Positions 4,429 to 39,136 of a stretch of 41,875 nt of DNA are shown in pieces. The translations under genes and the position numbers were made by a program. The notes beneath the pieces were generated by a model. That model was not told where the DNA came from, did not search any database, and saw nothing but the letters and a program-made list of their open reading frames with translations. The stretch spans positions 1 to 41,875 of the forward strand of contig JACPZV010000389.1 in assembly GCA_016195295.1 (NCBI GenBank), given 5' to 3'. The DNA comes from Acidobacteriota bacterium. Lineage in GTDB: Bacteria; Acidobacteriota; Vicinamibacteria; Vicinamibacterales; CAVVIG01. The stretch's first letter is position 1, and the number at the start of each line of letters is the position of its first letter.

Positions 4429-4722
4429 ATGAAAGAGTTCACTGCTCGCTGGCTGAATCATCCACGCTGGCCCGTCATTCTCGGCGTGGTGGCGATCGTC
4501 GTCACGCTCCGGTCGCTGTGGACCGGGTTCGTGGTCGATGACTATGTGCCGGACGACGGCCGGCCGACAAAGATCGGCTTCCACTTCGACGCCGCCCTCG
4601 AAGACGACTCCATCGCGTGGTTCGCACGGCTCGAGCCCTCTTCGAACAACGCGGTCCCGACGAGGGGCCGCTATCCGCCATGGAAGCCCCCGCCTGTCGG
4701 CCAGGCGATCTCCGTCAGATGA
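4429..4722 (+). CDS. Hypothetical protein with one N-terminal TM helix; possibly the 5' fragment of a larger membrane protein
   Basis: The internal ATG at 4429 gives MKEFTARWLNHPRWPVILGVVAIVVTLRSLWTGFVVDDY, which looks like the start of an ArnT/PMT-like membrane protein. The rest has no recognisable domain. Confidence 0.25.
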   Translation: MKEFTARWLNHPRWPVILGVVAIVVTLRSLWTGFVVDDYVPDDGRPTKIGFHFDAALEDDSIAWFARLEPSSNNAVPTRGRYPPWKPPPVGQAISVR

Positions 4723-4813
4723 GGGTGCGGACCGAAATCACGGACCAGCGCCAGGGCTGACGGTTGACGGCTCTGGGGCCACGCAACAGAACTTGTTGCG
4801 CGACCTGGATTCG

Positions 4814-5176
4814 GTGCGCTACAATGCGTACGTGGCTGTCGCGATCGAACGCCTCACGCGGGTGAAGCTCCGCCGGATCGCGGAGGAGCTCGGCGGACAG
4901 AGCGAAGTCGCCCGCCTGCTGCACGTCCACCGATCGCGGGTTTCGCGCTGGTTGGCGGGCGACGAACCGGACCCGCGCAACAAGGCCAAGCTCGAGGCGC
5001 TCGAATTCGTCCTTGCACGGCTGCTCCAGACCTTTGCGCCGGCCACCGTCCGGAAGTGGCTCAGCGCGACGAACGCGCACCTGGGCCACCGGCGGCCGCT
5101 CGATCTCCTTGCGCGCAATCGCCTCTCCGAAGTCATCGCCGCGATCGAGCAGGCCGATCTCGATTCGTACGCCTGA
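4814..5176 (+). CDS. Xre-like HTH / DUF2384 antitoxin of a RES toxin (ParS/MbcA type)
   Basis: HTH segment GGQSEVARLLHVHRSRVSRWLAG, then a DUF2384-like C-terminus WLSATNAHLGHRRPLDLLARNRLSEVIAAIEQ. The stop abuts the RES gene start. The start was chosen at an in-frame GTG (4814; 4832 is also possible) because the upstream part of ORF 4538.. is Arg/Ser-rich junk. Confidence 0.75.
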   Translation: MRYNAYVAVAIERLTRVKLRRIAEELGGQSEVARLLHVHRSRVSRWLAGDEPDPRNKAKLEALEFVLARLLQTFAPATVRKWLSATNAHLGHRRPLDLLARNRLSEVIAAIEQADLDSYA

Positions 5177-23700: not shown

Positions 23701-24091
23701 CCGCGTCGGTCGACTTGTAGATGCCGTCGCCCATCACGTCGCTGTCGCGAATCGCCCACGCTTCGCCGGTCCCGGCCCACACGGTGTTGGGTTCAGAGGA
23801 GGCGACGGCGAGCGCGCCAATCGCCTGCGACGATTGATCGTCGAACACCGGCTCGAACGTCCGCGCGCCGTCAGTCGATTTCCAGACGCCGCCCGACGCC
23901 GCGCCAGCGTAGTACGTGTTGGTGTCGCCGGACACGCCGGCCACGGCCGCGATGCGGCCCGCGCTTTCCGGCCCCATATAGCGGAACCGGAACGGCGGCG
24001 GCGCCTGCGCGGCCGGTGGAGCGGCCTGTTGTGCCAGCGCGACCGCTCCTAGGATTCCCGTGCAGAAGAACTTGAGGAATGACCGTGTCAT
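20789..24091 (-). CDS. Secreted BNR/Asp-box repeat, sortilin/VPS10-like beta-propeller protein (~1100 aa)
   Basis: Signal peptide MTRSFLKFFCTGILGAVALAQQ. There are repeated S-x-D-x-G-x-T-W type Asp-boxes (KSTDGARTF, KSTDAGKTW, KTTDGGQTW, TRDGGATW, RSDDGAATW, RSLDGGSTF, KTSDGGQSW, TRDGGGRW, KTTDFGQTW). The start was set at ATG 24091, not the ORF-track 24484. Confidence 0.8.
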   Translation of the reverse strand: MTRSFLKFFCTGILGAVALAQQAAPPAAQAPPPFRFRYMGPESAGRIAAVAGVSGDTNTYYAGAASGGVWKSTDGARTFEPVFDDQSSQAIGALAVASSEPNTVWAGTGEAWAIRDSDVMGDGIYKSTDAGKTWKNMGLADTGRIGRVIVHPTNPNIVYVCALGRTTGPQQERGVFKTTDGGQTWQRSLFVDANTGCSGLTLDAHDANVLIAGMWQVEMHTWAELSGGPGSGVYVTRDGGATWTRGETGLPKSPVGKIDVAIAPSDSKRAYALIQTANQGSLWRSDDGAATWRVVSWDRTLIGRAGYYIRIDVNPKNADEVLIANSSFHRSLDGGSTFTINTGGGCGDCHDIWMDSKNADHWVATGDGGMGITIDHGRTFNQIALPIGQMYHVAVDNQVPYWIYSNRQDDGTMRGPSDSPAAVPNVPSYRGITGVGSGLVDPAAAGGRGGRGPSTGSGQAAGGGGRGRGAAGGIGVTPWQPNLGGCESGFTLPDLTNPDVVWASCYGAEVTRYDARTRRARSVSPTIHTLDSAPTDVKYRCHWTPPLAIDPFDHNTVYFGCQVIFKTSDGGQSWKVISPDLSTQDASRIVSSGGIIGDNLGQFYGELVFAIAPSEVQRGLIWAGTNDGKVWNTRDGGGRWNDVTKNIIGLPPWGTVRKIEPSHFDPGTAYVAIDFHLVDNRDPFIYKTTDFGQTWKKISDSLPAKHPLSYALSIAENPNRRGMLFAGTGHGFFYSLDDGGHWTQFTDGLPAAPVTWIVVPKLAHDVVISTYGRGLFILSDITRLEQSDQVTTDADAFLYAPRPGFRLARSGTVDLLYSLKAASTAPVNAVKLEILDAGGTIVRTLQSAGRAGLNRVVWDLRYEAPKAVALRTTPPDNPHIWEEPRFKGKDTRPIVHWGIEQAASAAPIAAPGKYTVRLMVNGRSQTRPIEVLKDPAIPSSDGDLVASTMAQTRVRDRMNDTADMINKIEIVRKQIEDQLQTHRGQAQAEKALNDLDAKLLAVELRLLSRTDLHSDDKWYVEAYKIYMNLVCLNGVVGSGAGDVAGGADYRPTDASLEVLEGIDRDLAAARAEFNRVMDQDVPAFNRTAAATGLSALRPDR

Positions 24092-24240
24092 GCGAGTCCC
24101 TCGTGTTGATGGGTGATGGTCGACATTGTACCGGCGACGTTGCGCCCGTCCCAATGGGAATGGATTATCCCCGATACCCGCGAAGTGAAGGTCGAGCCTC
24201 TGGGCGCTAACCCGCTCGGCTATGATGCGCGAAAGGCCCC

Positions 24241-25731
24241 ATGCCCAGAGCAAGCAAGACCGAACCACCGCAGGTCCCTCGTGCTGGCATCTTCGCGATG
24301 AACTGGCTCCGAAATGCCGTACGGATCCTCGCTCGGATTCGGGAGCGAATCTTCCCGGTTCGTCCTCGGAATGATGAACGCGCAAGTGAAACGCCAAGGT
24401 CTGTGGAAGGCGACGCGTGGGGATCGCCGGTAGCTGTTCTGACAGCGGAATCAGTGAAGGCAGAAGGGGACCAAGCTGCGCCACTTCCTTCCGTTCCAGG
24501 TGCAGAGCCAGATCGAGGGTCTATCGACGTTGCGTGGGAAGCTCCGAAGGCAGACGGCGATGCTGACCTGAAACAAGTCCAGTCCCAGCAAAGTCCACAA
24601 GACGACAGCTCGCAGGCTGCGCCGGCGTCTGTTGCGTCGATTGATATCGACGCATCGGGACACGATTCAGAAGAGAAAAAGGTAGACGAGACTGCGCGAC
24701 AAGAAGACGTCCACCAGTCCGCTCCGCCTGCATCAGGTCACGGGCTCGTCAGCCCAGAGACACCGCAAACTCCGGGACGCGTCGAGCCTGTGCGTCGGGG
24801 TGGTCGGCCGCGGGGATGCGGCGCACCGCAACGGCGCGATGATTCTAAGATCGATTCAGGCCTAAGGAGCCGTGGCCGGCCGCCGAAACCAGAGCTCGTC
24901 TGCTGGCGCAAGGGCATGAACTGGCTGGTTGGGATCGAGGTTCCTGACTCCTCATCCTCCGAGGAATGGGATCTACGGCACGGAGTCGCACCCTTGGAAG
25001 AGGACGAGCAGCGATCCGGTCGATGGGTTCTGAGCTCACCATGCGACTCCGTCACAGCTCAATGTGGAGACGGACCTGAGGTCATGTTCGCGGAGGAGCC
25101 GTTTCGGCTCTTCAAGCTATCCGGCGCCTCGTGTGACCGAGGCCGACACATTCGGTCGCTGACCAACGGTCGGTTCCTTATCATTGCTCCTGAGGAATTT
25201 GAGCCCAACCAACCGATGCTGGACTCGGCGTTTCTCGCCAATGAGCACGTCGTTGGCGCGTGCCGTGCACATCACGTCGAACTGCCTTCAGCAGTTCAAG
25301 ATCCGATGGGTTTCAGGACGCTGGAGGGAGAGTTCAGGTCCGTGCCAATTACCGGCGCGGCGTTCGAGTTCCAAGGAGATCTGGTTCCTGATGCGCACGC
25401 GATGGCTGGACCGTTGTTCCGGGGCGAACCACCCCACCTTCGGAGTCGCGGAGTGGTTTCGTATGGGACGGTCGTGATTATCGATCAGGGTGTCAAAGAT
25501 TCATCAACGCACTGGCGGCGGTCATCGTCTGACTTCGAGGAACTTCGGCCGGAAATCGCGTCGCGTCGGGCAGGGTGGTTCCAAGTGCGGCTGTACAACG
25601 ACGTGGATCAACACATCGAGAGTCTCGACTTCAGGTTTGCCGCTGGGTTACAAGCCATCTTGCGTGAAGCCGCGGCAACCCATGCCGAGCTCGAACGGGC
25701 ATGCTACCGCGCCGATCAAAGTCGTGCATGA
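24241..25731 (+). CDS. Hypothetical protein A, first gene of the helicase array: disordered acidic/Pro-rich N-terminus (~210 aa), a basic patch, then a beta-rich domain
   Basis: I recognise no domain. It is on the same strand as the helicases and upstream of them. The start is uncertain (24241 or 24298). The 3' ~90 nt may be out of frame; see findings. Confidence 0.55.
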   Translation: MPRASKTEPPQVPRAGIFAMNWLRNAVRILARIRERIFPVRPRNDERASETPRSVEGDAWGSPVAVLTAESVKAEGDQAAPLPSVPGAEPDRGSIDVAWEAPKADGDADLKQVQSQQSPQDDSSQAAPASVASIDIDASGHDSEEKKVDETARQEDVHQSAPPASGHGLVSPETPQTPGRVEPVRRGGRPRGCGAPQRRDDSKIDSGLRSRGRPPKPELVCWRKGMNWLVGIEVPDSSSSEEWDLRHGVAPLEEDEQRSGRWVLSSPCDSVTAQCGDGPEVMFAEEPFRLFKLSGASCDRGRHIRSLTNGRFLIIAPEEFEPNQPMLDSAFLANEHVVGACRAHHVELPSAVQDPMGFRTLEGEFRSVPITGAAFEFQGDLVPDAHAMAGPLFRGEPPHLRSRGVVSYGTVVIIDQGVKDSSTHWRRSSSDFEELRPEIASRRAGWFQVRLYNDVDQHIESLDFRFAAGLQAILREAAATHAELERACYRADQSRA

Positions 25732-26629
25732 TGCGCACTGCCAGGTCATCCCGCTTGGTGCGGACGCAGTATCCGTGTCGGTTATTACCGAGGAAGGGGG
25801 CACGAGAGTCGAACTTCCTCCTTTGCCGATTTTCGATGAGACGTTGTGCCTTGTTGAGCATCGTGGAGGCGGACAGGTCGAGATTGGCCTGGGAGTCGAC
25901 CGAGTGTGGTGGTCCATGCTGGATGGGCCGGAGGACAAGACTCGCGTCGATTGGACCGATCGGCCGTTCGAGCTTCGAGCCGCCGACTTCGCCGCGACAA
26001 GTCAGCGTCTGCTGCGGGTTCGGCTGCCGCGCGCCTGGGAGGGCACCACTGTAGACGTTGGCGTCGCGCCATACCGAACCGTATTGGCTCGTCCTCTGCC
26101 TCGCCGCCGACGTGAAGCAGAAGTTCCATTCCGGGAACTCGGCAGGTTTCCCGAGGTTACCGACGGTGTCTCTGGAGTCGAGCTCAAGCTGTGGGGGCGC
26201 TCTTCTGCGGGCGAGATGTGGAACGGCGTTGTCGGTCGGCTGATCGTCGCCGAGCCCACAACGAGACTGCACCTGGAAGCGCTCAGCCCGGTCAATGCCA
26301 TGAGGATTCTCACTCGACTTCGGCAGCAGTGCCTGGGCCGGGGATGCTGTCACCGGGCTCTGGTTGACAGGCTCCGCAAACGGTACGACAGGCTCGCTCG
26401 ACATGCGGATTGTCCCAGTGATGCCGAGCGACAAACATTCCTCTGCGACGCGCTGTGCGTTCTCGCGCTCGTGGAGGACGAACATTTGCGGGATGGATGG
26501 AGTCCTCGCATCCCCGCGAGGTGGATCCGTAGGGCGAGGGCCGCAGCGACCAGGTTCCCCTTGGTCCTTGAGGGGCTGAAGCTCGCTCGTCCGTGGCGGG
26601 ATCGAGGAGGATCCGCGAGTGACTCATAA
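25682..26629 (+). CDS. Hypothetical protein B (or the C-terminal part of A if A and B are one frameshifted gene)
   Basis: The frame is open from 25490. Candidate starts are ATG 25682 and GTG 25724. A hand count of third-position GC in the overlap favours this frame from about 25640 onward. The stop overlaps the helicase start by 11 nt. The C-terminus is helical and Cys-rich. Confidence 0.5.
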   Translation: MPSSNGHATAPIKVVHDAHCQVIPLGADAVSVSVITEEGGTRVELPPLPIFDETLCLVEHRGGGQVEIGLGVDRVWWSMLDGPEDKTRVDWTDRPFELRAADFAATSQRLLRVRLPRAWEGTTVDVGVAPYRTVLARPLPRRRREAEVPFRELGRFPEVTDGVSGVELKLWGRSSAGEMWNGVVGRLIVAEPTTRLHLEALSPVNAMRILTRLRQQCLGRGCCHRALVDRLRKRYDRLARHADCPSDAERQTFLCDALCVLALVEDEHLRDGWSPRIPARWIRRARAAATRFPLVLEGLKLARPWRDRGGSASDS

Positions 26630-29600
26630 GGTGGGCATACCTAACGCAGGTGACGGGGTAAGTCCAATTGGACTGGCTCGTGAGATCCAAGAGCGGTATC
26701 ACGGGTACCTGAGAACAAGCTTCTACTTCCGGGATCCGCTGCTCCGCCGCTCGTTCGAGGACGAGCTCGCACAGGGCCAGCTCGTGAACGGACCGTTCGT
26801 TGAAGCCACTCCTGTCTATTCCAGGGAGACGACGACGAGCGCGTTGTTAGCCGAGCTTCACCGTGGAGACGTCGACGCCGGCTTCATGGCTGCCCTCGAT
26901 CCGCAGCAGCGCCGGCTGTACGTGCATCAGGAACAGGCCGTTCGCCGCCTTAATAGGGGCCGCAACGTCATTGTGGCGACAGGGACCGGCAGCGGGAAGA
27001 CGGAGGCCTACCTGCTACCGATTCTGCTGGCACTGTACCGAGAGAGCCTGCTCGGCGAACGAGCGCCAGGCGTAAGGGCGCTGATTCTCTATCCCATGAA
27101 CGCACTGGCGAACGATCAATGTCGCCGCCTACGCGAGTTCGCCATGCGGCTTGCCGCGCGCGGCAGCAAGTTCTCGTTCACGTTCGGACGCTACACGGGT
27201 GAGACGCCAGAAGATGAGAGGGATTCCTTCCGCAACGCGAGGCGACTGCTTGGGAATCGGAAGCCGGGAGACGGAGAACTGGTGCTGCGAAGGGAGATGC
27301 GGGAGCGGCCTCCTGACATCTTGCTGACGAACTACTCGATGCTCGAATACTTACTTCTACGCCCGAAGGACAGCCTTCTCTTCGACAACGGGCGCGGATC
27401 GACTTGGCGGTTCTGCGTTCTTGATGAGGCGCACCAGTATCGTGGCACGAAGGGTATGGAGATGGCGATGCTTCTTCGTCGTCTCAAGGAACGCCTACGT
27501 GAAGGTGGCTTGGCGCAACGCATCCAGTGCGTTGCGACAAGCGCCTCGCTGGGGGGTGGACCGGGACGGACATCGAACCTTGCGGCTTTCGCCCGCGAGC
27601 TCTTTGACGAGCCGTTCGAAGAGGAAGACGTGCTCCTGGAGGATGTGACGAGGTCCACGACGACCGGCACAGTGTCAGTTCCTGCGAGCGACTTCCAGGC
27701 GCTTTCGCGAGCTCTTGAGGCCGGCGATCGTCAGTGTGAGGCGGAACTCCAGAAATTGGCTAACCGATGTGGGATCACGCTCGGATCGGAATCAGGAATG
27801 GCCGAGCGTCTCCATCGTGTGTTGTCGGCGGACCATCGGTTGGCCAAGCTGCGCACAATCCTCGATACGCCACGTCTGGCGAACGATGTTCGCGACGCCG
27901 TCTTCGACGAAGTTCCTGAGGATCGGCGCGAGGAAGTTCTGGAAGCCTATCTTCATCTCGTTACGAGCGCACGCGATCCGGAGTCTGATGCCCCGCTTCT
28001 CACACTTCGGTATCACCTCTTCCTGCGAGCACTCGAGGGAGCCTTCGTGAGGTACTGGCCGGATAAACGGGTTTCTCTGGCCCGGGCTGGCGCGGGTGCC
28101 GTATCCGTCGAAGGGAAGGGCGACAGCGGTTCGTGGTTCGAAGTCGCCCTCTGTCGCGAGTGCGGACAGCACTACTTCGTCGGGCGCTGCGAGGGCGGAT
28201 TTCTCCGAGAGGCGCTCCGCGATTATGGCGACGATGATTTCAGCGTGTCGTTCTTTCGACCGGTGGAATTGTCAGAGGGCGACGACGACGCAAAGCGCGC
28301 TCGGCTGTGTGTGATCTGTGGTGCGCTATCCGCGTCGAGTCAAAGACCTGGGGATCCTGCGTGCGGCCACCATATAGTGATCGACGTCGTCGAGGAGAAG
28401 GTACGCGACGCATCTAAGGATCAGATGCGGACGTGCGGGGCCTGCGAATACAGGGGACCGGACCCAGTGAGGGAGATTGTCCACGGTACTGACGGTCCGA
28501 ATGCCGTGGTGGCCACGGCCCTGCATCGCTTATTGCCCGAGGACCGACGGAAGGTTCTGGGTTTCGTTGACGGCAGGCAGGAAGCTGCGTTCTTTGCTGT
28601 CTACCTGGAAAGAAGCTACCAGTCCATCCTTGGACGGAGTCTGCTGTTTGCGACCGCACAGTCGCTGGCCCGGGAAGGCTATCGGGAGGTGTCGCTCGGC
28701 TCGCTGGCTGCAAAGCTGACTCGAGTGTTGCGCGAGCGTGGAGTTGTGCTGGCTTCCGCCGACGATCTCCAGGTTCGGCGGGAAGCATGGAAGCTCGTGT
28801 TTTCCGAGTTTGCGACCGATGAGCCAAGAATCTCTCTGGAAGGCGTCGGTCTCGTTCGTTGGCTTCCTGTCCTTCCGGATGACCTGTCAGTTCCAGAATC
28901 GCTGTTTCGCAAGCCGTGGTCTTTCGGGCCAGAGGAAGCCAGAGACCTGCTTCGTTGGCTGCTGGACTCGTTGAGGAGCGATTTCGCGTTAGAACTGCTG
29001 GCGGATCGTGGAATCGATCTGTCGTGGGAGGATCTGGGCCTGAACGCCTCGCAATCGAGGGTAGAAGTGGGCGGCGGTCGGGGGGTACGGGCGTGGGACG
29101 GTCCACGGACCCGCAGAACGGGCTTCCTGGTGCGCGCTCTCGCGTCCGGCGCCGACGCAGCACTCGATGCGCGGGCGAAGGTTAACGCCGCTCAGCAGCT
29201 TCTGCGGGAAGTCTGGGAGGCTCTTAAGGTGGCTGGTGGAGAAGACCGGGTCCTGCTTCAGGTCGGAGACTCGCGGCGCATCAATCCGTCGTGGTGGCGT
29301 CTGAACCTCGTCCTTCCACAGGATGCGCGGTTCCAGTGCGACACGTGCGGACGCCATCAGTCACTTTCCGTGCGTTCTGTCTGTGGCCGGCACGCGTGTC
29401 CGGGTACGCTCCGACCGGTTGAGCCCGGTGGTACCGATTCGGCGCGCAATCATTACCGCCAGTTGTACGAGCAGGCGCTGCCTTCGCGGCTGCGCGCCGA
29501 GGAACATACCGCACAGATTGCTCCCGAGAAGGCTCGTACGTTTCAAGAGGACTTTGAAAAAGGGCTAATCCACTTTCTCAGTTGCTCCACGACTTTCGAG

Positions 29601-31331
29601 CTGGGTGTTGACCTCGGGGATCTGGACACGATTTTCTTGCGAAACGTGCCGCCAGAGCCCTTCAACTACGCGCAGAGAGTGGGCCGTGCGGGTCGCCGGG
29701 CGAGCCATCCTGGCTTCGCCGTGACGTATTGTCGCCGTAGGCCACACGATCTCGCCCACTTCCAGGATCCTCGCGAGTTGATGGCGGGACGGACAGCCCC
29801 GCCGCTCCTGAAGCTGACGAACGCCAAGATCGTTGGCCGGCACCTTACCGCAGTCGTCCTGTCGGAGTTCTTTCGGAAGCTGGGGAACGAGTCCCGCTTC
29901 GAGAGTGTTGCCGCATTCTTGGTCAACATGAAGGAGCCGGTCGTCGTCGCCGATCTCGCGCGCTTCGCGGCAGACAGTTCCACGGATCTCAATCCGCAGT
30001 TACGTAGGCTGGCGCCTCGCGCGCTCCATGCCAGTCTCGGACTCGACGACGGAACATGGATTCAGCAAATCATCACCGATGCTGAAACCCGGCTGGCGAG
30101 TGTCGTGAGCGAGGTGTCCAGCGACTACGCCAGGGTGGAACAGTTTGAGGAGGAGGCCAGTAGGAGCAAGAGGCACCGGGACGCGGACTGGGCTCATCGG
30201 AGGGCTGAGACGATCAGCGGCGAAGACGTGATCTCGTTTCTCTCTCGTAAGGCCGTCATCCCCAAGTACGGATTCCCGGTGGATGTCGTCGAGCTGGACC
30301 TTCAGCCGCTGCGGAGGAGTTCGCGTGAGAGCAGTGAAGTTACCCTACAGAGGGACCTCTCCATCGCTGTGTCTGAGTTCGCCCCGGGTTGCCGCCTCGT
30401 GGCAAACAAGAAGTTGTGGACGTCTTACGGATTGAAGCGGGTTGCAGAGCGAGAGTGGGGCTGGAGGCATTACAGAAGGTGCAATCGCCATGGCACCTTC
30501 GTTAGCTGGGAGCTCAACGATCAACCGCCTGAAAGACCGTGCTGCGCAAAAGTGGTTCAGAACACGTACGTTGACCCGATCTTCGGCTTTGTCACAGAGC
30601 GCAAGGCTCCAGAGGATCCGAGTTACCGACCAGCGCGGGTTTACACGACGCGACCGTATTTTCTAGGGCCTGGAGGCGTTGAGCCGGAGACCATTGAGAT
30701 CGCTGGAGTAGCCAGCGTCCGCAAGGCGTCTCCTGGTCGGCTCGTTGTTCTCTGCGAAGGCAAGAAAGGGCGGGGTTTCACGATCTGCCAGAACTGCGGC
30801 GCAGGCGTCGACGAAAGAGCGAAGGAACACAAGACACCGCTCGGAGAGCAGTGCCGTGGCGCGCTCAGGCGGGTCACGCTCGGTCATGAGTTCCTGACGG
30901 ATGTGCTGCGGGTGAGATTCCATCAACGGCCGGCGTCCGCGGCGGCTCCTGACGGCATGCTGTGGTTCGGGTTTTCGCTGGCCTACGCGCTTCTCTACGG
31001 CGCTCACGAGATCCTCGAAGTTCCGCGCCAGGACCTCAACGTGACGGTTCGCGGAGGTGAGGGAGACGAGGTTCCAGAAGTCGTCCTCTATGACGACGTG
31101 CCTGGAGGCGCGGGTCTGGTTGCCAGACTGGAAGAACCGGAGGCCTTTCACGAGTGCCTGGTCAGGGCACGCGCGCGTGTTTTGGGTTCGTGCGGTTGTG
31201 CAGCGGACACGAGCTGCTACGGGTGCCTACGGAGCTACGCCAACCAGTTCGCGCATCCGCGACTTCGTCGCGGTGCGGTCAAGGGCTATCTTGATGAAGT
31301 TCTCGGGCGCTGGCGCAGCGGGAATCCATGA
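26619..31331 (+). CDS. Large DEAH-box helicase with C-terminal DUF1998/MZB zinc-binding domain (YprA/MrfA/DruE-like), 1570 aa
   Basis: Motif I ATGTGSGKTEAY, Ia LILYPMNALANDQ, LLTNYSMLEYLLLRP, II LDEAHQYRG, III VATSASL, VI AQRVGRAGRR. PKYGFPVDVVELDL and GSCGCAADTSCYGCLRSYANQFAHPRLRRGAV are MZB/DUF1998 hallmarks. Several CxxC ribbons are present. GGAGGA lies 7 nt upstream of GTG 26619. Confidence 0.85.
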   Translation: MTHKVGIPNAGDGVSPIGLAREIQERYHGYLRTSFYFRDPLLRRSFEDELAQGQLVNGPFVEATPVYSRETTTSALLAELHRGDVDAGFMAALDPQQRRLYVHQEQAVRRLNRGRNVIVATGTGSGKTEAYLLPILLALYRESLLGERAPGVRALILYPMNALANDQCRRLREFAMRLAARGSKFSFTFGRYTGETPEDERDSFRNARRLLGNRKPGDGELVLRREMRERPPDILLTNYSMLEYLLLRPKDSLLFDNGRGSTWRFCVLDEAHQYRGTKGMEMAMLLRRLKERLREGGLAQRIQCVATSASLGGGPGRTSNLAAFARELFDEPFEEEDVLLEDVTRSTTTGTVSVPASDFQALSRALEAGDRQCEAELQKLANRCGITLGSESGMAERLHRVLSADHRLAKLRTILDTPRLANDVRDAVFDEVPEDRREEVLEAYLHLVTSARDPESDAPLLTLRYHLFLRALEGAFVRYWPDKRVSLARAGAGAVSVEGKGDSGSWFEVALCRECGQHYFVGRCEGGFLREALRDYGDDDFSVSFFRPVELSEGDDDAKRARLCVICGALSASSQRPGDPACGHHIVIDVVEEKVRDASKDQMRTCGACEYRGPDPVREIVHGTDGPNAVVATALHRLLPEDRRKVLGFVDGRQEAAFFAVYLERSYQSILGRSLLFATAQSLAREGYREVSLGSLAAKLTRVLRERGVVLASADDLQVRREAWKLVFSEFATDEPRISLEGVGLVRWLPVLPDDLSVPESLFRKPWSFGPEEARDLLRWLLDSLRSDFALELLADRGIDLSWEDLGLNASQSRVEVGGGRGVRAWDGPRTRRTGFLVRALASGADAALDARAKVNAAQQLLREVWEALKVAGGEDRVLLQVGDSRRINPSWWRLNLVLPQDARFQCDTCGRHQSLSVRSVCGRHACPGTLRPVEPGGTDSARNHYRQLYEQALPSRLRAEEHTAQIAPEKARTFQEDFEKGLIHFLSCSTTFELGVDLGDLDTIFLRNVPPEPFNYAQRVGRAGRRASHPGFAVTYCRRRPHDLAHFQDPRELMAGRTAPPLLKLTNAKIVGRHLTAVVLSEFFRKLGNESRFESVAAFLVNMKEPVVVADLARFAADSSTDLNPQLRRLAPRALHASLGLDDGTWIQQIITDAETRLASVVSEVSSDYARVEQFEEEASRSKRHRDADWAHRRAETISGEDVISFLSRKAVIPKYGFPVDVVELDLQPLRRSSRESSEVTLQRDLSIAVSEFAPGCRLVANKKLWTSYGLKRVAEREWGWRHYRRCNRHGTFVSWELNDQPPERPCCAKVVQNTYVDPIFGFVTERKAPEDPSYRPARVYTTRPYFLGPGGVEPETIEIAGVASVRKASPGRLVVLCEGKKGRGFTICQNCGAGVDERAKEHKTPLGEQCRGALRRVTLGHEFLTDVLRVRFHQRPASAAAPDGMLWFGFSLAYALLYGAHEILEVPRQDLNVTVRGGEGDEVPEVVLYDDVPGGAGLVARLEEPEAFHECLVRARARVLGSCGCAADTSCYGCLRSYANQFAHPRLRRGAVKGYLDEVLGRWRSGNP

Positions 31332-31376
31332 TCGTTTTGCGGACTGACGAATGAGCACTGGCGGCCTGCAGGCGAC

Positions 31377-31414
31377 TTGATATCAAATGCAGATCAGGGT
31401 AAGAATACTACCCT
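31377..31414 (+). promoter_or_regulatory. Candidate abiE promoter (TTGATA-N17/18-TAAGAAT) overlapped by the inverted repeat AGGGTA-N7-TACCCT
   Basis: Read directly from the sequence: TTGATA at 31377-31382 and inverted-repeat arms at 31396-31401 and 31409-31414, 8 nt upstream of the AbiEi ATG. AbiEi proteins are known to autorepress through promoter inverted repeats. Confidence 0.4.
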
Positions 31415-31421
31415 CATCAGC

Positions 31422-32225
31422 ATGCAACATAAAGTCAAGACGCGCGATTTCTTCGCCACGCACCCTGTCTTCTCCCTGGACGAGGCCGCTCGATCGCTGG
31501 CCCCGAGGCGAGGACGAGCCGCCACGCTCGACCGCCTGAAGCATCACCTCAAGGCCGGCCGGATCAAAGTCGCGGCCAGAGGCGTCTACGCGCTGGTGCC
31601 CGCCGGCGTGCCGGCCGGGCGGTTTTCGCCGGACCCGGTCCTCGTCGCGCTGGCGATGCGGCCCGACGCGGTGTTCTCGCACCACACAGCCCTCGAGCTT
31701 CTCGGCGCCGCGCACTCGGCGTGGCGCCAGTGTACGGTCTACACCGCCAGGGTTCATCGGCCGATGGCGCTGAACGGCACCGCGATCCTGTTTCTTGCGA
31801 GTCCCAAGGGCCTGACCGGCAAGCGAGCGCTCGGCACGCGCCGGGTCGAACGACGCGGACGGCTGGTCGAAGTCACCGGCCCCGAGCGTACGCTCGTCGA
31901 CGGGTTTCGGCGGCCTGCCCTCGCCGGCGGGCTCGAAGAGCTCGTCACTTCGGCGAGCGGGTTTGCCACGATGGATCTGAAACTCGTCGAGGAAGTTCTT
32001 CGACGCTATGGAGCGGCGAACCTGTGGGCCGCGGTCGGCTGGTTCCTCGATCGATTCCAGAAAACTTTTCACGTGTCCGAGGCCGTGCTCAAGCGACTGG
32101 AACGCCACCGGCCGCAGTCGCCCCAGTATCTCGAGCGCGGGACGCGCGGCGGCGTCCTGGCGCATCGCTGGAATCTGATTGTGCCTGAGGCTCTCGCCGG
32201 GTCAGGTGAGCCCGATGAGCGTTAG
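31422..32225 (+). CDS. abiEi: AbiEi-family antitoxin / transcriptional regulator (type IV TA)
   Basis: The N-terminal wHTH-like segment has the pattern RDFFATHPVFSLDEAARSL...LKHHLKAGRIKVAARGVYALV, followed by FSHHTALELLG and ERTLVD. The stop overlaps the AbiEii start by 11 nt. Confidence 0.8.
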   Translation: MQHKVKTRDFFATHPVFSLDEAARSLAPRRGRAATLDRLKHHLKAGRIKVAARGVYALVPAGVPAGRFSPDPVLVALAMRPDAVFSHHTALELLGAAHSAWRQCTVYTARVHRPMALNGTAILFLASPKGLTGKRALGTRRVERRGRLVEVTGPERTLVDGFRRPALAGGLEELVTSASGFATMDLKLVEEVLRRYGAANLWAAVGWFLDRFQKTFHVSEAVLKRLERHRPQSPQYLERGTRGGVLAHRWNLIVPEALAGSGEPDER

Positions 32226-33197
32226 CGTCGAGTACCTCGAACGCTGCGCCAGCGAGACAGGCTTTCAGGTCGCCTCACTTGAGAAGGTCACCCGGCTCGG
32301 AGAGCTGGCCGCGGACATCGCCCGTCATGCGTTCCTGGCGGAGGTGCTCGCGCTCAAGGGTGGCACGGCGCTGAATCTGGCCTTCGGCGCACCCTCGCGT
32401 CTTTCGGTCGACCTCGACTTCAACTACATCGGTCACCTCGATCGCGAGAAGATGCTGGCCGATCGACCGCGAGTCGAAGCCGCGGTCGCGGAGCTGGCTC
32501 GCCGCCACGGCTACCGCGTGCAGCGATCGGCGGACGCGTTCGCCGGACGAAAGCTGTTCCTGGCCTACCGGTCCGCCCTCGGCCAGAACGACAGGATCGA
32601 GGTCGACCTCAACTTTCTCTTCAGACAACCGCTTTGGAAGACCGAAATCCGAACGCTGTGGCAGCCTGGCGAACTGGATCGCCCGCGGGTCGTCGTCGTC
32701 AGCGTCGGAGAGCTGCTCATCGGAAAGTTTTCGGCCCTGTTGGACCGGGCTGCGACCCACAGGACGCATGGGACGTGGCGAACCTTCAGCCGGCGGCTCG
32801 CGATGCCATTGGATCGCCTCGCTTCCGTCCTCACTTCATGGCGATGGCCGCCACGCTGACGCACCCGCCGTCCGAGTACAGCGAGAACCGCCTCGCCAGA
32901 ATCGTGACCGACCGGGCCGTGGAGGAGCAACTCACGCCGATGCTCGTGTCGGGAAAGACGCCGCGGGCCGCCGATCTGGTGAGAAGGTCGTGGGCCGTCG
33001 TCGGGCCTCTCGTCGATCTGACGGACCGTGAACGGGAGTTCCACGCCGCCGTTGGTCGCGGCGACCTTCGTTTGGATCTTTTGTTCGATGGCAGTCCTGG
33101 AGACGCGTCCCCGCTGTCCACCCACCCGGCACTGTTGTGGAAGATGATGAACGTCCGTCAACATCTGGCGAAACGTCAGGCAAGAACTGACACCTGA
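32215..33197 (+). CDS. abiEii: AbiEii/AbiGii-family nucleotidyltransferase toxin (frameshifted as given)
   Basis: Pol-beta NTase motif LKGGTALNLAFGAPSRLSVDLDF. Frames 32179.. and 32634.. join at the GGG run 32747-32749 (...FSALLDRG|CDPQDAWDVANL...) to give a total of ~327 aa. Confidence 0.8.
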
Positions 33198-33200
33198 GCA

Positions 33201-36200
33201 ATGGCGCTGAACCCGATCGTCTTCACCGAGAAGGTCGTCAGGAGCTTCCTGCGCTACCAGCTCACGGCGTATCCGTTCGCCGACGAGCGGTTGCACGCGC
33301 AGATGCGGCGGCTGTTGTCGCTCGACGAGACGCGGCAGTCGCCGCTGATGAAAGGCCCCTATATCAGCCTGTCGCGCCCGTTCCGGCAGGGGGCGGCGGT
33401 GGACGCGCTCGTCCGCGAGGGCATCTTCCATCCCCACATGCGCCAGCGGATTCCGGCCGAGATCGCGCACGTCTACGGCCATCAGGAAGACGCCATTCGA
33501 GCGATCCGCGCGGGCAAGACGACGCTCGTGTCCACGGGCACCGGGTCGGGGAAGACCGAGTGCTTCCTGTATCCGATCATCAGCAAATCCCTGGAACTGA
33601 GAGATGCCGGCGCTCACGCCGGCATCAGCGCCGTCATCGTCTATCCGATGAACGCGCTGGCTGAAGATCAGCTCGGCCGGTTGCGGTCGCTCCTGGCCGG
33701 TACGGGCATCTCGTTCGGCATGTACGTCGGCAAGACGCCGGAGAACGAGGCGGAAGTCACCGGCATCCGGCTGCCGCAGGGCGCATCGCGTGCCGACTAC
33801 GAGGCCAAGGTCGCCGAAGTCCGGCGCGAGAAGCGCAGCGACACGGTGTATCCACCCGAGGAAATCTGCTCGCGCGAGGTGATGCGGACACCGGGCCGGC
33901 AACCACGGATCCTGCTGACGAACGTGAAGCAGCTCGAGCTGCTGCTGACCCGCCAGCGCGACGTGAATCTGTTCGCCGACGCGCGGCTCGACTTCCTCGT
34001 CTTCGACGAGGCCCACACGTTCACCGGAGCGCAGGGTGCTGAGACGGCTTGCCTGATCCGGCGGCTGCGATCCTTCTGCGGACGAGGCATCCAGGAGACC
34101 GCATGCGTCGCGACCTCCGCGACCATTGTCGATCACGAGAACCCGGACGCCGCGCGCGATTTCGCGTCCAGGTTCTTCGGTGTTGAACCAGACGCTGTCG
34201 TCACGGTGGGCGAAGCGTACGAGCGCGAGGTATGGGAGAACGATCGCGTCGTCCCGATCGTGCCGCAGAAAGATCCTGCGGCCCTGCTGAACGATTGTGT
34301 CCGGAGCGTCGAGGAAGACGGAGGAGCGGGACATGCCGTTCGAGCCGCGTACAGGCAACTCGCCGGAGTGGATCTGCCGGCTGGCGAGTGGCCGCGCGCG
34401 CTGTATTCCGCGCTCTCGCGCAACGAGCTGGTCTTCCAACTCAGCGAGGTGCTGGCGAGGCCGCGGCCGCTGAACGAGCTGCCCGCTGAATTGGGGGCGA
34501 CGCTCGGGCGCTCAATGACCGAAGCCGAGATCCTCTGCTGGCTGACTTTGGGAGCGGCCGCCCGGTCGCAGGGCCGACCGCTCCTGCGTCCGGTCGTGCA
34601 CGGGTTCGTGCGTGGCATCAGCGGCGCGGTCGTGAGTTTTCCGGTGACTGAGCCCGGACCCCGGCTGTGGTTCGCCGCGGAGGACGAGATCCAAGCCCAG
34701 GGTGGATCGGCGCAGCACGCGCACTTTCCAATCACGACGTGCACGACGTGCGGCCAGCACTACTTTATTTCTCACTTGAAGGACTTCGAATTTGCCGGAA
34801 CGACGCCCGGAGGCGGAGAGGCGGCAGCCGATTCGTCCTTCTGGGAGCCGCTCGAGGAAGCGCGGGGCGGCAAGCGCGCCATCCTGATCGATCGCATCGT
34901 GGGCGGCGCGGACGATGACGACCTGGACGAGCACGACCGGCTGGCGCCGGTCAGCTTTTGCCGTCGCTGCGGCGCGGGTCACCCGCAGGCGATCGGACGC
35001 TGCCTGCACTGGTACGGCCGCGGAGATGGTGTCGCTGTACGCGGTCAGACAGAAGAAGGACAACCCCGGCTTCCTGACCAGTTGCGTTTCCTGCGGCGCG
35101 AACGGCCGCCGCATGGGCACCGTCTACCGCGAGCCGGCGCGTCCGGTGCGCGCGACCAACGTCGCGGACGTTCACGTCCTCGCGCAGGACATGGTGCAGC
35201 ACTCGGAGCGGCCGCGCCTGCTCGTCTTCTGCGACAACCGGCAGGATGCCGCGTTTCAGGCCGGTTGGATGAAGGACCATGCGCGCCGGTTCCGCCTGCG
35301 CGCGCTCATGGCCGAAGGCATGAAGGACGGCGGCCTTTCCATCGGCGATCTGACCCGCCACGTGGACGACGCGCTCGAGGCGGATGAATCGCTGTCGCGC
35401 GCGCTCGTGCCCGAAGTCTGGCAGGTCGTGCGCCGGGAAGGTGGTGGCGGCCGCCACGAGCAGGAGCGGCGGAAGTTCCTGCGCATCCAGGTGCTGCGCG
35501 AGGTCACGATGTCCGCGCGCCAGCCAATCGGCCTGGAGCCATGGGGACGGATGAAAGTCGAGTACCTCGGACTCGATCAGGGTCTTCCGTGGATCCAGCG
35601 GCACGCGCGATCGCTTGCGATGCCGGTCGAGGATCTACGGGACGGTGTGGCCGGTCTGCTCGATTACCTTCGTCGTCGTCGCGCGCTGCACGACCCGGAG
35701 CACGAGATCTTCACGAAATACTGGCAGGATGGCGACCTCGAGCTTCAGCAGGGTTATCTGCCGCAGCTTGGATCGCCGACAGGCACGAAACTGCGCCGCG
35801 GCGGCAACGAGAAGCCTGAATTGGTGCTGCAGTGGCTGAGCGAGCGCGGGGACACCACGATTCGCCAGATCGTGCGCAAGTGGGGCGTGAAGTCTGACGA
35901 GGCGGCGGACTTCATCGATGGACTCTTCACGTTCCTCATCGATCAGCGTCTCCTGGTGCCCGTACGGCTCAAAGGCTCTCACGGCAATCCACTTCCCAAT
36001 GTGAGCGGTGTGTATCAGGTGGACGCCGATCGGCTCCGTCTTCTGCAGAACCATGGCGTCTGGCGCTGCCGCAGCTGCCGGCGCCGGACTGCGCGCCGTG
36101 CGCCGCTCCAGAAGTGTTTGTCGTGGAGGTGCGACGGCGAGCTGGAGTTCATCAAGGAAGACCCGGACAACTACGATCTGCAAGTGCTCGACCAGGGCTA

Positions 36201-38985
36201 CGCGATGCTGCGGCCCGAAGAGCACACGGCCATGGTGCCGCACGACGAGCGTGAGCGTCTCGAGAACCTGTTCAAGGGTGAGTCCGACGCCGTGAACGCG
36301 TTCGTCTGTACGCCAACGCTCGAGCTGGGCGTTGATATCGGGCAGCTCGATGCGGTCCTGATGAGGAACGTTCCACCACGGTCCGCGAACTACTGGCAGC
36401 GCGCGGGGCGGGCCGGCCGGCGCCATCGCATGGCTGTAGACCTCACGTACTGCCGGCCAGTGTCGCACGACCGCGCGTACTTCGCCGACCCATTGAAGCT
36501 GCTGGCCGGGCGCATCGATCCACCTGCGTTCAACCTGCGCAACGACCTGATGGTCGCCAAACACGTGCACGCGACGGTCGTGACGCGGCTGCATCAGTAC
36601 GCGCGAGACCCGGCTCGCACCGAGGTCGAGCGGCGAAGCATCGAAGAGACGCTGCAGCGCTGCCTGCCGAATCAGGTGTCGGCCTGGTTGTTCGAGGACG
36701 GCCTTGTCAGAGAGCGGCCATTCGATCTCACGCCTCTCCGGACACTGATCGACAGCAACGTTGACGACCTCGTGGAGTACGTCGAAGGCGCATTCCGCCA
36801 GGGCTGGCCGAAGGCGGATGCGGAGGTCACGACGCCCGAAGAACTGCGCGCGCACGTCACGAGCATGGTCGACGGCCTCGGCGAGATTCTCGCGCGCCTG
36901 GTGCGCCGCCTTCGCTGGGCGATGGCTCAGATCAAACGGCTCAACGTGGTTCGCGAGCGGCAGGGCGACCTCGATGCCGAAGACGAGGCGCTGTTCCGCC
37001 GGTGCGGCGCTCTCGTCAAGCGCCTCAAGGGGACGGAACGTCGAACGCGGCGCGAGGCCGAGGGTTACGACGATGCGAACACGTTTGCCGTGCTGGCGGC
37101 CGAGGGTTTCCTGCCGGGCTACGGCCTCGAGGTCGGATCCGTCCTCGGCACGGCAGAGATTCCTTACTGGCGTACCGGTGCCATGGAGTTCGTGCTGCCG
37201 CGATCGGCCAGCGTGGCGTTGCGCGAGTACGTGCCGGGCAATCTCATCTACGCGAACGGGAACAAGTTCGTCGCGCGGCGATTCCACCGGGACATCGACG
37301 AGCAGCGCGCCGAAATGCCGGCGTTCGAGGTGTCAGTCGAGCGACAAGCCGTCAAGGAAACGAACGCCGGCGGGCCGACGTCTGGACTCGGCTCGCAAGT
37401 CCTGCAGACGATTGCCGTCTGCGACGTCGACCTCGTCCACCAGTCGCACATCTCGGATGACGAGGAGTTGCGCTTTCAGATGGGCGTCTCGGTTTTCGGG
37501 TTGGAGCGCGACCAGCACAATGGCGGCCGCGCCTGGCGCTGGGGAGAGCAGGCGCTCCACCACCGGCGCGGCGTGCGGCTGCGTCTCGTCAACGTCGGAG
37601 CGACTCGGGCGATCGGGCAGCAGCAACTCTTCGGTTATCCGATCTGCACGGTGTGCGGCCAAAGCATCTCGCCTCTCTCGTCGGACAAGCAGTGGGAGCA
37701 CTTCGAGACGTCGCACCGGGACCGGTGCGGCCGGGAACCTGAACCCGTTGGGTTCTACGCGGACGTCGTCGCCGATGTGCTGTCTCTCCCGGCCTGCGCG
37801 AATCAGAAAACCGCATACAGCGTGCTCGAGGCGCTGCGGTTCGCCGCGACCCAGGTGCTCGACATGCACATGGAGGATCTGCAGATCCTGGTCATCGGCC
37901 ACGTCGATCGCGACGAGGTCGATGGACTCCTCTGGGATCCAATGCCTGGAGGGTCGGGACTGCTCGACCAGATGTGCGAGCGCTTCGATGAGATCGTCGC
38001 GGCGGCGCGGGAAGTCGTGGAGGGTTGTCCGTCGGCCTGCGAGACGTCGTGCATCGACTGCCTTCAGACGTTCCGTAATGGCTATTACCACAAGTATCTG
38101 GACAGAAAGGTGGCGGTCGATCGGCTATCGGTCTGGGGCGATCGACTTTCGGTCTCTCACGACATTCCGCCGAAGCAGCCTTCGCAGGAGCCAGGCGAAG
38201 GCACCCATCCGGTCAATGAGGCGGAGCGGCGTCTTCGACATCTTCTCGGTGCCGCAGGTTTTGAGGAAGGGATCCGAGGCGAGCCGCTTCGTTTGGATCG
38301 CAGCATCGGCACGACGACCCCCGACGTTATCTATCGAGCAGCACATCATGGTCTCGAAGAGGGGATCTGCATCTATCTGGATGGACTCAGCCGGCACCTC
38401 CATGGGAACCCTGCGACCGCCGATCAGGACCAGCGCATCCGAAGCTGGCTCCGCAACAACGGGTTTGAGGTCATTGAGATCGCAGTCAGCGACCTCTACG
38501 ACGACGGCGCGATGACACGGCACTTCAGAAAACTTGCGGGGTATCTCGGCGCCAATGAGCTGCGGGATCGGCTTCGTACGAACACGTCATGGTTCTCGAA
38601 GGTGGCTGACGCGTCCGACACGTCGGCCCGGTTCGAGCCGCGGCGCGTTCAACCGCGTCCCGGGGAGCATTACCGGCATTGCGTGCCACTGGTGCCTCTT
38701 AAGGCTGGCTCGTATTGCCTCTTTGCGGCACCAGTCGAGGGATCCAGACAGGGCAAGACGGTGTTGGTGCAACTGCGCAAGGAGAAAGACCCCGAAACGG
38801 GCGAGCGCTATACGGTGAAGCGGTACTCCAGCGAGAAGGCGACCTCGCCTGACGGGACGTGGCGGCACGTGAAAATCACCCTCACGCCGAATAATCCGAT
38901 CTTTCAACCGGTGGAACTAACCACCGATGACGACGGCAGCGTCGGAGTCGTCGCCGAACTGGTTGAAGTGCTCACGAATCGCTAG
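33201..38985 (+). CDS. Very large DEAH helicase + DUF1998/MZB + Vsr/DUF559-like PD-(D/E)xK nuclease + truncated S24/LexA-like C-terminal domain (frameshifted as given, ~1.9 k aa)
   Basis: TGTGSGKTECF, VYPMNALAEDQ, LLTNVKQLELLLTRQRD, FDEAHTF, VATSATI, WQRAGRAGRR, EGFLPGYGLEVGSV, CPSACETSCIDCLQTFRNGYYHKYLDR. The nuclease-like segment is TTPDVIY...ICIYLDGLSRHLHG...DQRIRSWLRNNGFEVIEI. The tail is CVPLVPLKAG|SYCLF..GSRQGKTVLVQ...YTVKRY. ORFs 33201..35387 and 34915..38985 join at GG 35011-35012, which restores the zinc ribbon CRRCG...CLHC. The ATG lies 3 nt after the AbiEii stop. Confidence 0.85.
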
Positions 38986-39136
38986 GAGCGCGTCCGAGAA
39001 ATCTCAACACGCTCCCTAGAAAAACTGCGACAAGATGGCTTTCCAAAAAGCGAAGGCTGAACACCTGGGTGTGCGATAAGAGTTCTGGCTGTTTGACAGA
39101 GCCGACTGGTCACCGTACGCTGACAGTCTACTTCCT

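Follow-up and report, generated by a model that had tools for sequence, protein, structure and literature searches.

A frameshifted gene upstream of a compact DruE helicase points to a sizeable, previously undescribed family of Druantia-like partner proteins

In a stretch of 41,875 nucleotides from an Acidobacteriota bacterium (contig JACPZV010000389.1 of assembly GCA_016195295.1, the whole of which is referred to here as the window), two overlapping open reading frames (ORFs), A and B, lie directly upstream of a gene for a DruE-like helicase. Comparison with homologous sequences indicates that A and B are one gene, split in the window by one extra base, and we use the label X for the family encoded by the fused A+B, the member of which in the window is ~795 aa long. 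X is probably the obligatory upstream partner of compact, nuclease-less DruE helicases of the YprA/MrfA type, in a module built like Druantia type III. We assign a probability of about 0.75 to this reading as a whole, that is, to a single gene, an inactivating break, and the presence of X in the place of DruH beside DruE. The frameshift itself is ordinary, and it is the family of the interrupted gene that constitutes the new element.

Two reading frames, one interrupted gene

An earlier note on this DNA, made from the letters alone, described the two ORFs and proposed either a gene overlap or a hidden frameshift. Both ORFs are present on the forward strand as described: ORF A (24241-25731, 496 aa) and ORF B (25490-26629, 379 aa), the latter in the +1 frame relative to A and overlapping it by 242 nt. 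Using the folded part of A concatenated with B as a query, we found an initial set of 35 homologues (546-923 aa), all of which are single ORFs spanning both halves. The closest of these (P0001, 777 aa) reads ...ESLDFRYAAGLQGIEREAGAPMPSSNGHATAPIKVVHDAHCQV... across the junction, where the window reads ...ESLDFRFAAGLQAILREAAA in frame A and PMPSSNGHATAPIKVVHDAHCQV in frame B, and homologues run on into ...PMPSSNGHATAPIKVVHDAHCQV... within one ORF.

The position of the break was mapped by blastn of the window DNA against the contig of the closest relative (L001), the two being 86.5% identical over 3.36 kb. Indels of 3, 6, 6, 2+3+4, 12, 3 and 3 separate the two sequences, and all are multiples of three, either singly or as an adjacent group. 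The sole frame-breaking difference is an extra base in the window at 25677/25678 (feature 25677..25678, forward strand), one A of the AA dinucleotide in GGCAACCC, where the relative has GGC-ACCC, and the protein alignment places the break at the same site. The positions suggested in the earlier note, 25636-25638 or 25645-25647, were thus wrong by a short distance, the true site lying ~35-40 nt downstream, yet its expectation that removal of one base would fuse A and B into a protein of ~795 aa was correct. Indeed, deletion of base 25678 yields a protein of 795 aa that is collinear with all homologues, which confirms a genuine hidden frameshift in the sequence as written. The repaired protein aligns end to end with the 35 homologues at 21-77% identity and retains all invariant columns.

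The gene as reconstructed consists of a 5' part in frame A (24241..25677, forward strand), which encodes aa 1-479 of the repaired protein and is collinear with homologues, and a 3' part in frame B (25679..26629, forward strand), which encodes aa 480-795 and ends with the TAA stop at 26627-26629. An alternative start at ATG 24298 (MNWLRN..., forward strand) agrees with the start of the closest homologue. The suspicion that the tail of ORF A is an off-frame translation holds for its last 17 residues alone (THAELERACYRADQSRA followed by TGA, 25678..25731, forward strand), which are a product of the insertion and occur in no homologue, but frame A is genuine up to ...GLQAILREAAA. Conversely, the first 63 codons of ORF B (25490..25678, forward strand) are non-coding in the B frame and represent a spurious 5' extension, where the +1 frame is open by chance and homologues align with frame A. 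The earlier estimate of GC content at third codon positions (GC3) in 25622-25731, about 70% for the B frame against about 56% for the A frame, was reproduced (0.69 and 0.54), but this statistic does not discriminate between frames in the X gene. In undisputed A-frame coding sequence (24871-25489) the +1 frame scores 0.69 against 0.64 for A, and in undisputed B-frame coding sequence the third frame outscores B. Because a wrong frame scores higher even where the coding frame is undisputed, GC3 is uninformative here.

Two alternative explanations for the paired ORFs would retain both as functional, either as separate overlapping genes that are each translated independently, or as the two parts of a gene from which full-length X is produced by programmed +1 ribosomal frameshifting or transcriptional slippage. 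We regard the existence of separate genes as highly improbable. Both ORFs are open, and in-frame starts for B exist at ATG 25682 (right after the break) and at GTG 25724, yet neither is preceded by a clear Shine-Dalgarno sequence, and the break sits in a conserved motif (P482, G486, H487) that opens a confidently modelled beta-sandwich domain. Moreover, the alignment with homologues that the earlier note had recommended reveals none that is split at the break point, and so favours the frameshift over the overlap. A programmed shift is scarcely credible. The shift needed is indeed +1, and the frames overlap across a long open stretch; however, the site (GCA ACC CAT) lacks a slippery motif, a hungry-codon context or a homopolymer run, and the 86.5%-identical relative uses a single frame, as do all other homologues. 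The A/B pair is best annotated as one frameshifted gene, and not as two hypothetical proteins.

A large family that escapes existing models

A profile scan with HMMER of 1.84 billion representative sequences recovered 1,045 clusters at 50% identity with E<=1e-3, 805 of them with E<=1e-30. Among the best 150 of the 1,045 clusters, most proteins are 560-930 aa long and, with few exceptions, align to the profile as a single continuous match, and the collinear core of X amounts to ~570 aa. Scanned singly against Pfam and PADLOC, ORFs A and B gave no match, and the family alignment used as a profile against PDB sequences returned nothing significant. A Pfam scan of 36 members (the window protein and its 35 homologues) gave only sporadic C2H2 zinc-finger matches in a few; the same Pfam set also misses PF27205 and PF27201 in E. 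coli DruH, and so is no test of membership in DruH. Nearly all X homologues are without any precomputed Pfam family, and in a literature search we found no description of the X family, which has neither a PADLOC nor a Pfam model. X is consequently a sizeable and previously undescribed family that is unrecognised by PADLOC or Pfam.

Several members depart from the standard form at their ends, and such modular variants were noted in homologues P0021, P0024, P0032-P0035, P0215 and P0131. Several X members have C2H2-type zinc-finger tails in place of the helical C-terminal domain described below. P0215 carries tandem winged-helix DNA-binding domains at its N-terminus, before the X core, and in P0131 (1,001 aa) a match to X (residues 14-550) is followed by one to Helicase_C (residues 776-847). 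This second protein is apparently X fused to helicase sequence, possibly a fusion of X with DruE, possibly an artefact of gene calling. Together, the winged-helix, zinc-finger and helicase-fused variants lend support to a DNA-related, DruE-linked role for X.

X and compact DruE form a conserved cassette

The gene downstream of X in the window (26619..31331, forward strand) encodes a compact DruE/YprA-type superfamily 2 (SF2) helicase of 1570 aa with DEAD, Helicase_C and MZB/DUF1998 domains, which bears out the earlier description of a DruE-like helicase at this position. Its matches to PADLOC (DruE1, 5e-182; DruE3, 1.3e-159) and to Pfam (DEAD, 1e-22; Helicase_C, 1e-9; MZB, 1e-10) are strong, and the protein ends at the MZB domain (residues 1454-1537), with no C-terminal nuclease domain. 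Its GTG start is preceded by a GGAGGA Shine-Dalgarno sequence, and the first 11 nt of the gene lie within the end of X, stop codon included.

We examined ~20 related loci (L001-L020), and the search for relatives was also run with 17 closer sequences. A helicase with DEAD, YjiV_N, Helicase_C and MZB domains lies directly downstream of X in every examined locus that reaches far enough; it is 1,440-1,563 aa long where intact, and split or cut short in some contigs. Mostly only a few bases separate the two genes, and never more than ~430 nt. The genes around the X-DruE pairs are unrelated between loci, and 8 or more phyla or classes are represented among the hosts. The loci come from Ignavibacteria, Armatimonadota, Bacteroidota, Nitrospirales, Limisphaerales, Longimicrobiales, a gammaproteobacterial metagenome-assembled genome, Clostridiales and unbinned contigs. 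X and DruE form a conserved two-gene cassette.

In some metagenome contigs (L005 and L007, and also L012, L016 and L017), the DruE gene after X is split into two to four ORFs, and in L006, a sister contig of L005, it is intact. Long-read assembly errors could account for these split genes, as could recurrent inactivation.

Comparison with DruH and Druantia type III

Druantia type III-A combines a DruH of ~1,120 aa with a DruE of ~2,100 aa that bears two PLD domains (10.64898/2026.05.12.722862, PMC13192584), and type III-B combines DruH with a compact DruE without PLD domains (10.64898/2026.05.13.724758), as exemplified by MSMEG_1253/1254 of M. smegmatis, with a DruH of 1,132 aa and a DruE of 1,667 aa (PMC13316683; Bell et al. 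2025, 10.1101/2025.09.15.676423). A member of the YjiT family, DruH consists of an N-terminal globular J-like domain, several immunoglobulin (Ig)-like domains and a C-terminal domain (10.64898/2026.05.12.722862), and the III-A protein has been studied by cryo-EM (10.64898/2026.05.12.722862, PMC13192584); a 2026 preprint reports that it binds single-stranded DNA (ssDNA) between Ig5 and the C-terminal domain (10.64898/2026.05.12.722862), and it has been proposed to act as an infection sensor (PMC13192584). The supplementary tables of Bell et al. cover ARMADA helicases and domain statistics only, with nothing in those tables on partner families (10.1101/2025.09.15.676423).

The layout of type III, to which the earlier note had likened this locus, is retained in so far as a partner gene stands immediately upstream of druE on the same strand, an adjacency kept across all loci that reach far enough; however, the partner itself fails the tests for DruH. 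The likeness to type III-B is extensive. In both, a two-gene co-directional operon with overlapping or adjacent genes, set in variable genomic contexts, encodes a large protein without annotated domains directly upstream of a YprA/MrfA-family SF2 helicase of ~1,550-1,670 aa, and this helicase possesses DEAD, Helicase_C and MZB (DUF1998) domains but is without PLD nuclease domains. The III-A helicase, by comparison, extends to ~2,100 aa and ends in two PLD-like nuclease domains; the window DruE has neither of these, stops at MZB with 1,570 aa, and so fits the compact III-B-like form. X also resembles the DruH of III-A (the E. coli YjiT family) in its pairing with DruE, the DruH protein being a proposed sensor or ssDNA binder, and in the order of an Ig-like or Fn3-like beta-sandwich array followed by a C-terminal domain, as judged from the structural model described below, although this resemblance is generic.

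We took as DruH those proteins of the YjiT family that are recognised by PADLOC DruH3 models, by PF27205 together with PF27201, and by the NCBI name 'STY4851/ECs_5259 family'. None of the 36 X members matches any PADLOC DruH3 model at E<=1, whereas a control DruH from E. coli (plasmid CP057056.1) matches ten of them. Similarly, in the precomputed Pfam annotation of homologues, on which this comparison was based, neither PF27205 nor PF27201 occurs among X homologues, whereas almost every DruH homologue carries them. X profiles built from 36 or 126 sequences were aligned by hhalign with a 29-sequence DruH profile at probabilities of 3.8% and 2.7%. A clear profile match to DruH, which the earlier note had named as the finding that would remove the novelty of the protein, was consequently not detected by PADLOC, Pfam or hhalign (<4%). 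Furthermore, the folded core of X is about half as long as that of DruH (~570 against ~1,100 aa), and the model of X lacks a DruH-like N-terminal globular (J-like) domain; instead, X starts with a membrane-type or amphipathic helix, followed by a long disordered linker and AT-hook-like motifs. Whereas III-A DruH is soluble and monomeric or dimeric, many X members possess an N-terminal transmembrane helix. By these sequence criteria X appears to be a DruH-analogous partner that lies outside the definition of DruH.

An alternative reading makes X a genuine homologue of DruH, highly diverged and stripped of the N-terminal globular domain; the locus would then be a remote but ordinary Druantia III-B. 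In favour of this, X occupies the operon position of DruH beside a compact DruE, and both proteins contain an Ig-like array and a C-terminal domain. Additionally, both hhalign runs choose the same regions (X 291-402 against DruH 379-494) with a score of 32.4 (E 0.017), above the maximum of 25.8 obtained with one reversed and 20 column-shuffled controls, and the two profiles have a common motif, [FY]xLxG...P[LV]FxGxP. However, the probability that hhalign assigns to this match is very low. Separately, hhalign of X against single DruH sequences or single sequences of a partner protein from C. butyricum (see below) gave nothing. The weak match is confined to one Ig-like region in the absence of significant sequence similarity elsewhere, and convergence of fold can make Ig-like domains align weakly. 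We take it as a weak hint that one Ig-like module of X and DruH may share ancestry, which is not evidence of membership in DruH. Considering also the missing DruH3 and Pfam matches and the shorter core, we view the diverged-homologue reading as rather doubtful. The opposite possibility, that X is an independent, membrane-tethered sensor with AT-hook-like motifs that captured the slot upstream of compact DruE, and so is not a diverged DruH, is likewise put forward tentatively.

Other partners upstream of DruE

X is not the only protein to be found in this slot outside DruH. On the C. butyricum plasmid pNPD4_2 (NZ_CP013238.1; L021, 2783-10668), a hypothetical protein of 1,069 aa (WP_071981758.1) overlaps a compact DruE by 4 nt, and this DruE (1,559 aa) is 29.6% identical to that of the window. 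The partner belongs to a Firmicutes family of ~1,070 aa that numbers 374 or more homologues and is matched by neither Pfam nor PADLOC. Like X, this family occupies the position upstream of compact DruE and is without Pfam or PADLOC annotation; unlike a relative of X, it displays no relation detectable by hhalign to X, nor to DruH. Given that X, DruH and the Firmicutes family are mutually undetectable, the partner slot of compact DruE appears to be modular, and filled by several families without mutually detectable sequence similarity.

A further arrangement was observed on the Nostoc linckia plasmid AP018224.1 (L022, 2161-12357), where a 'chromosome segregation ATPase-like' protein (967 aa) and a hypothetical protein (307 aa) are encoded ahead of a DruE-like helicase of 2,122 aa. 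Neither of the two preceding proteins matches PADLOC. This locus may be another variant operon.

Architecture of X and its possible role

The repaired protein was modelled with AlphaFold2 (AF2) from the 36-sequence alignment, giving a mean predicted local distance difference test score (pLDDT) of 77, with values >90 over most of aa 210-786 and across the junction of the two frames. From the N-terminus, the protein comprises a helix at aa 15-37 (24283..24351, forward strand; AF2 secondary structure, hydropathy scan and alignment), a poorly conserved disordered linker at aa 41-209 (24361..24867, forward strand; pLDDT <50 and gappy alignment columns), and, at the end of this linker and just ahead of the folded core, two AT-hook-like basic motifs (24793..24894, forward strand; motif inspection and alignment). 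The folded core is made up of a tandem array of Ig-like beta-sandwiches at aa 218-667 (24892..26242, forward strand; pLDDT mostly >90, Foldseek) and a helical C-terminal domain at aa 683-782 (26288..26587, forward strand; AF2 helices). The residues that are invariant in the family (G445, W446, R450, Y452, F464, R465, W556, W557, W571 and D573) all fall within the Ig-like array, and so too, according to the model, does the break. 

The description of this N-terminal region in the earlier note, as some 210 acidic residues with no predicted fold, requires some revision: aa 41-209 are indeed disordered, but a helix is predicted at aa 15-37, and the region is no more than mildly acidic (33 D+E against 28 K+R over aa 1-210, and 31 against 20 in the linker, aa 41-209). 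The basic patch and the beta-rich sequence that follows it are present as noted. Its first part, RRGGRPRG (aa 185-192), is a near-canonical AT-hook-like motif that is kept across the family (consensus PEKRGGRPRG), and its second, RSRGRPPKPE (aa 209-218), contains the exact AT-hook core RGRP. Submission of the fused A+B to AlphaFold and Foldseek, as had been suggested, gave a confident model of an Ig-like array, but the matches in PDB and BFVD were generic; the best were the tandem Ig arrays of titin, CSF-1R and DSCAM, with TM-scores near 0.1, in a PDB set that did not include DruH structures. 

These features suggest a way in which X might act. The N-terminal helix, which in the clade of the window is amphipathic and basic and in ~10 of the 36 homologues is clearly transmembrane, with a cluster of K/R immediately after it, would anchor intact X to the membrane on the cytoplasmic side. 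Because K/R follows the transmembrane helix in many homologues, the positive-inside rule predicts an N-out/C-in topology that places the bulk of X in the cytoplasm. The flexible linker and the AT-hook-like motifs may make contact with DNA, and the Ig-like array and C-terminal domain may detect either a phage cue or a DNA intermediate and link its detection to DruE. By analogy with characterised DruE, the helicase would unwind DNA 3'-to-5' from ssDNA regions, and X, as its sensor or DNA-binding partner, could license or direct this 3'-to-5' activity against phage DNA.

Several points weigh against this interpretation. The helix of the window protein itself is amphipathic and not clearly transmembrane, with a maximum Kyte-Doolittle average over 19 residues of 0.81, and the AT-hook assignment comes from motif inspection alone. 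Ig-like arrays are so generic that a structural likeness to DruH tells us little about mechanism, and a defence role for X and for X-DruE pairs is suggested by genomic context and analogy.

On the tentative reading that X is an independent sensor and not a diverged DruH, X and the Firmicutes family of 1,070 aa would define unrecognised Druantia-like subtypes, DruE would be a common helicase engine for interchangeable and unrelated sensors, and X-type systems could monitor DNA on the inner side of the membrane, at the point of entry of phage genomes. Among anti-phage systems, Druantia is one of the most widespread. To our knowledge, mechanistic work on it dates only from 2025-2026, and all of this concerns DruH-DruE. 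With at least 1,000 clusters at 50% identity, distributed over many phyla, X stands in the position of DruH without a Pfam or PADLOC model, and defence-finding tools will therefore miss such Druantia-like loci or report a lone DruE. A comparison of X with DruH could also reveal which partner features DruE needs, whether an Ig array, a C-terminal domain or DNA binding.

Gene decay or sequencing error

As written, translation of X in the window would stop after 479 genuine and 17 junk residues, and truncation after residue 479 would cost about half of the Ig array and the entire C-terminal domain. Unless the extra base is a sequencing error, this copy of X is most likely inactivated, and the module in the window is probably non-functional, though DruE retains its own ribosome-binding site.

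We consider it likely that the extra base at 25677/25678 is a real mutation. The competing explanation is an error of sequencing or assembly, such that the organism would have an intact gene for the 795-aa protein and a working X-DruE module. Consistent with an error, this is a lone indel of one base in an otherwise well-conserved gene, in which the remaining differences from the relative keep frame; the downstream DruE is intact; and two more nearby genes each have a single frameshift, as an error-prone assembly would give. However, all three frameshifts are confined to a defence island at 24-39 kb of the window, none of them in a long homopolymer, whereas 13 of the 13 scanned ORFs with Pfam matches outside this island are without sign of a frameshift, most having near-full-length domain matches and some encoding large proteins (803, 924, 965 and 1,231 aa). 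Local gene decay therefore fits the confinement of frameshifts to the island, between intact flanking ORFs, better than does random error. Exact-protein look-ups of ORF A (with two alternative starts), of the AbiEi protein described below and of a TonB-dependent receptor found none on record, and two DNA pattern scans of metagenomes over the junction gave no matches. The indirect evidence leans towards real decay of the island, and an error in the sequence, though possible, is the less probable explanation.

The frameshifts of the island are found in the X gene, in an AbiEii toxin gene near 32750, and in a second DruE-like gene near 35000. An AbiEi antitoxin gene (31377-32225, forward strand; PADLOC AbiEi, 3.8e-68) lies between the two DruE genes, as does the AbiEii gene (the whole locus occupying 31377-33197, forward strand), which is split by the frameshift into one ORF at 32179-32859 (profile positions 1-181 of 306) and the remainder in 32634-33197, both on the forward strand. 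The second DruE-like helicase (33201-38985, forward strand, ~1,930 aa) is divided into ORFs 33201-35387 and 34915-38985; it extends ~300 aa past its MZB domain, possibly as a nuclease-type extension, and is not preceded by a DruH- or X-like gene. The broken genes encode presumed sensor or toxin components (X, AbiEii, DruE2), and AbiEi and the first DruE are intact, a pattern that could reflect selection against toxicity.

The first 7 kb of the island (24000-39000) have a GC content of 0.60-0.63, compared with 0.64-0.69 elsewhere in the window, and positive GC skew. The flanking housekeeping genes appear intact, and encode a TonB-dependent receptor with a carboxypeptidase-regulatory-like domain, a fusion of an ECF-sigma factor with a Ser-Thr kinase, a GH31 protein and a BNR/sortilin-like protein. 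Far from the island, a small ORF (4538-5176, forward strand) has weak, below-cutoff Pfam matches to helix-turn-helix families and to the Xre/MbcA/ParS antitoxin C-terminal domain, a hint that it may be part of a further toxin-antitoxin element.

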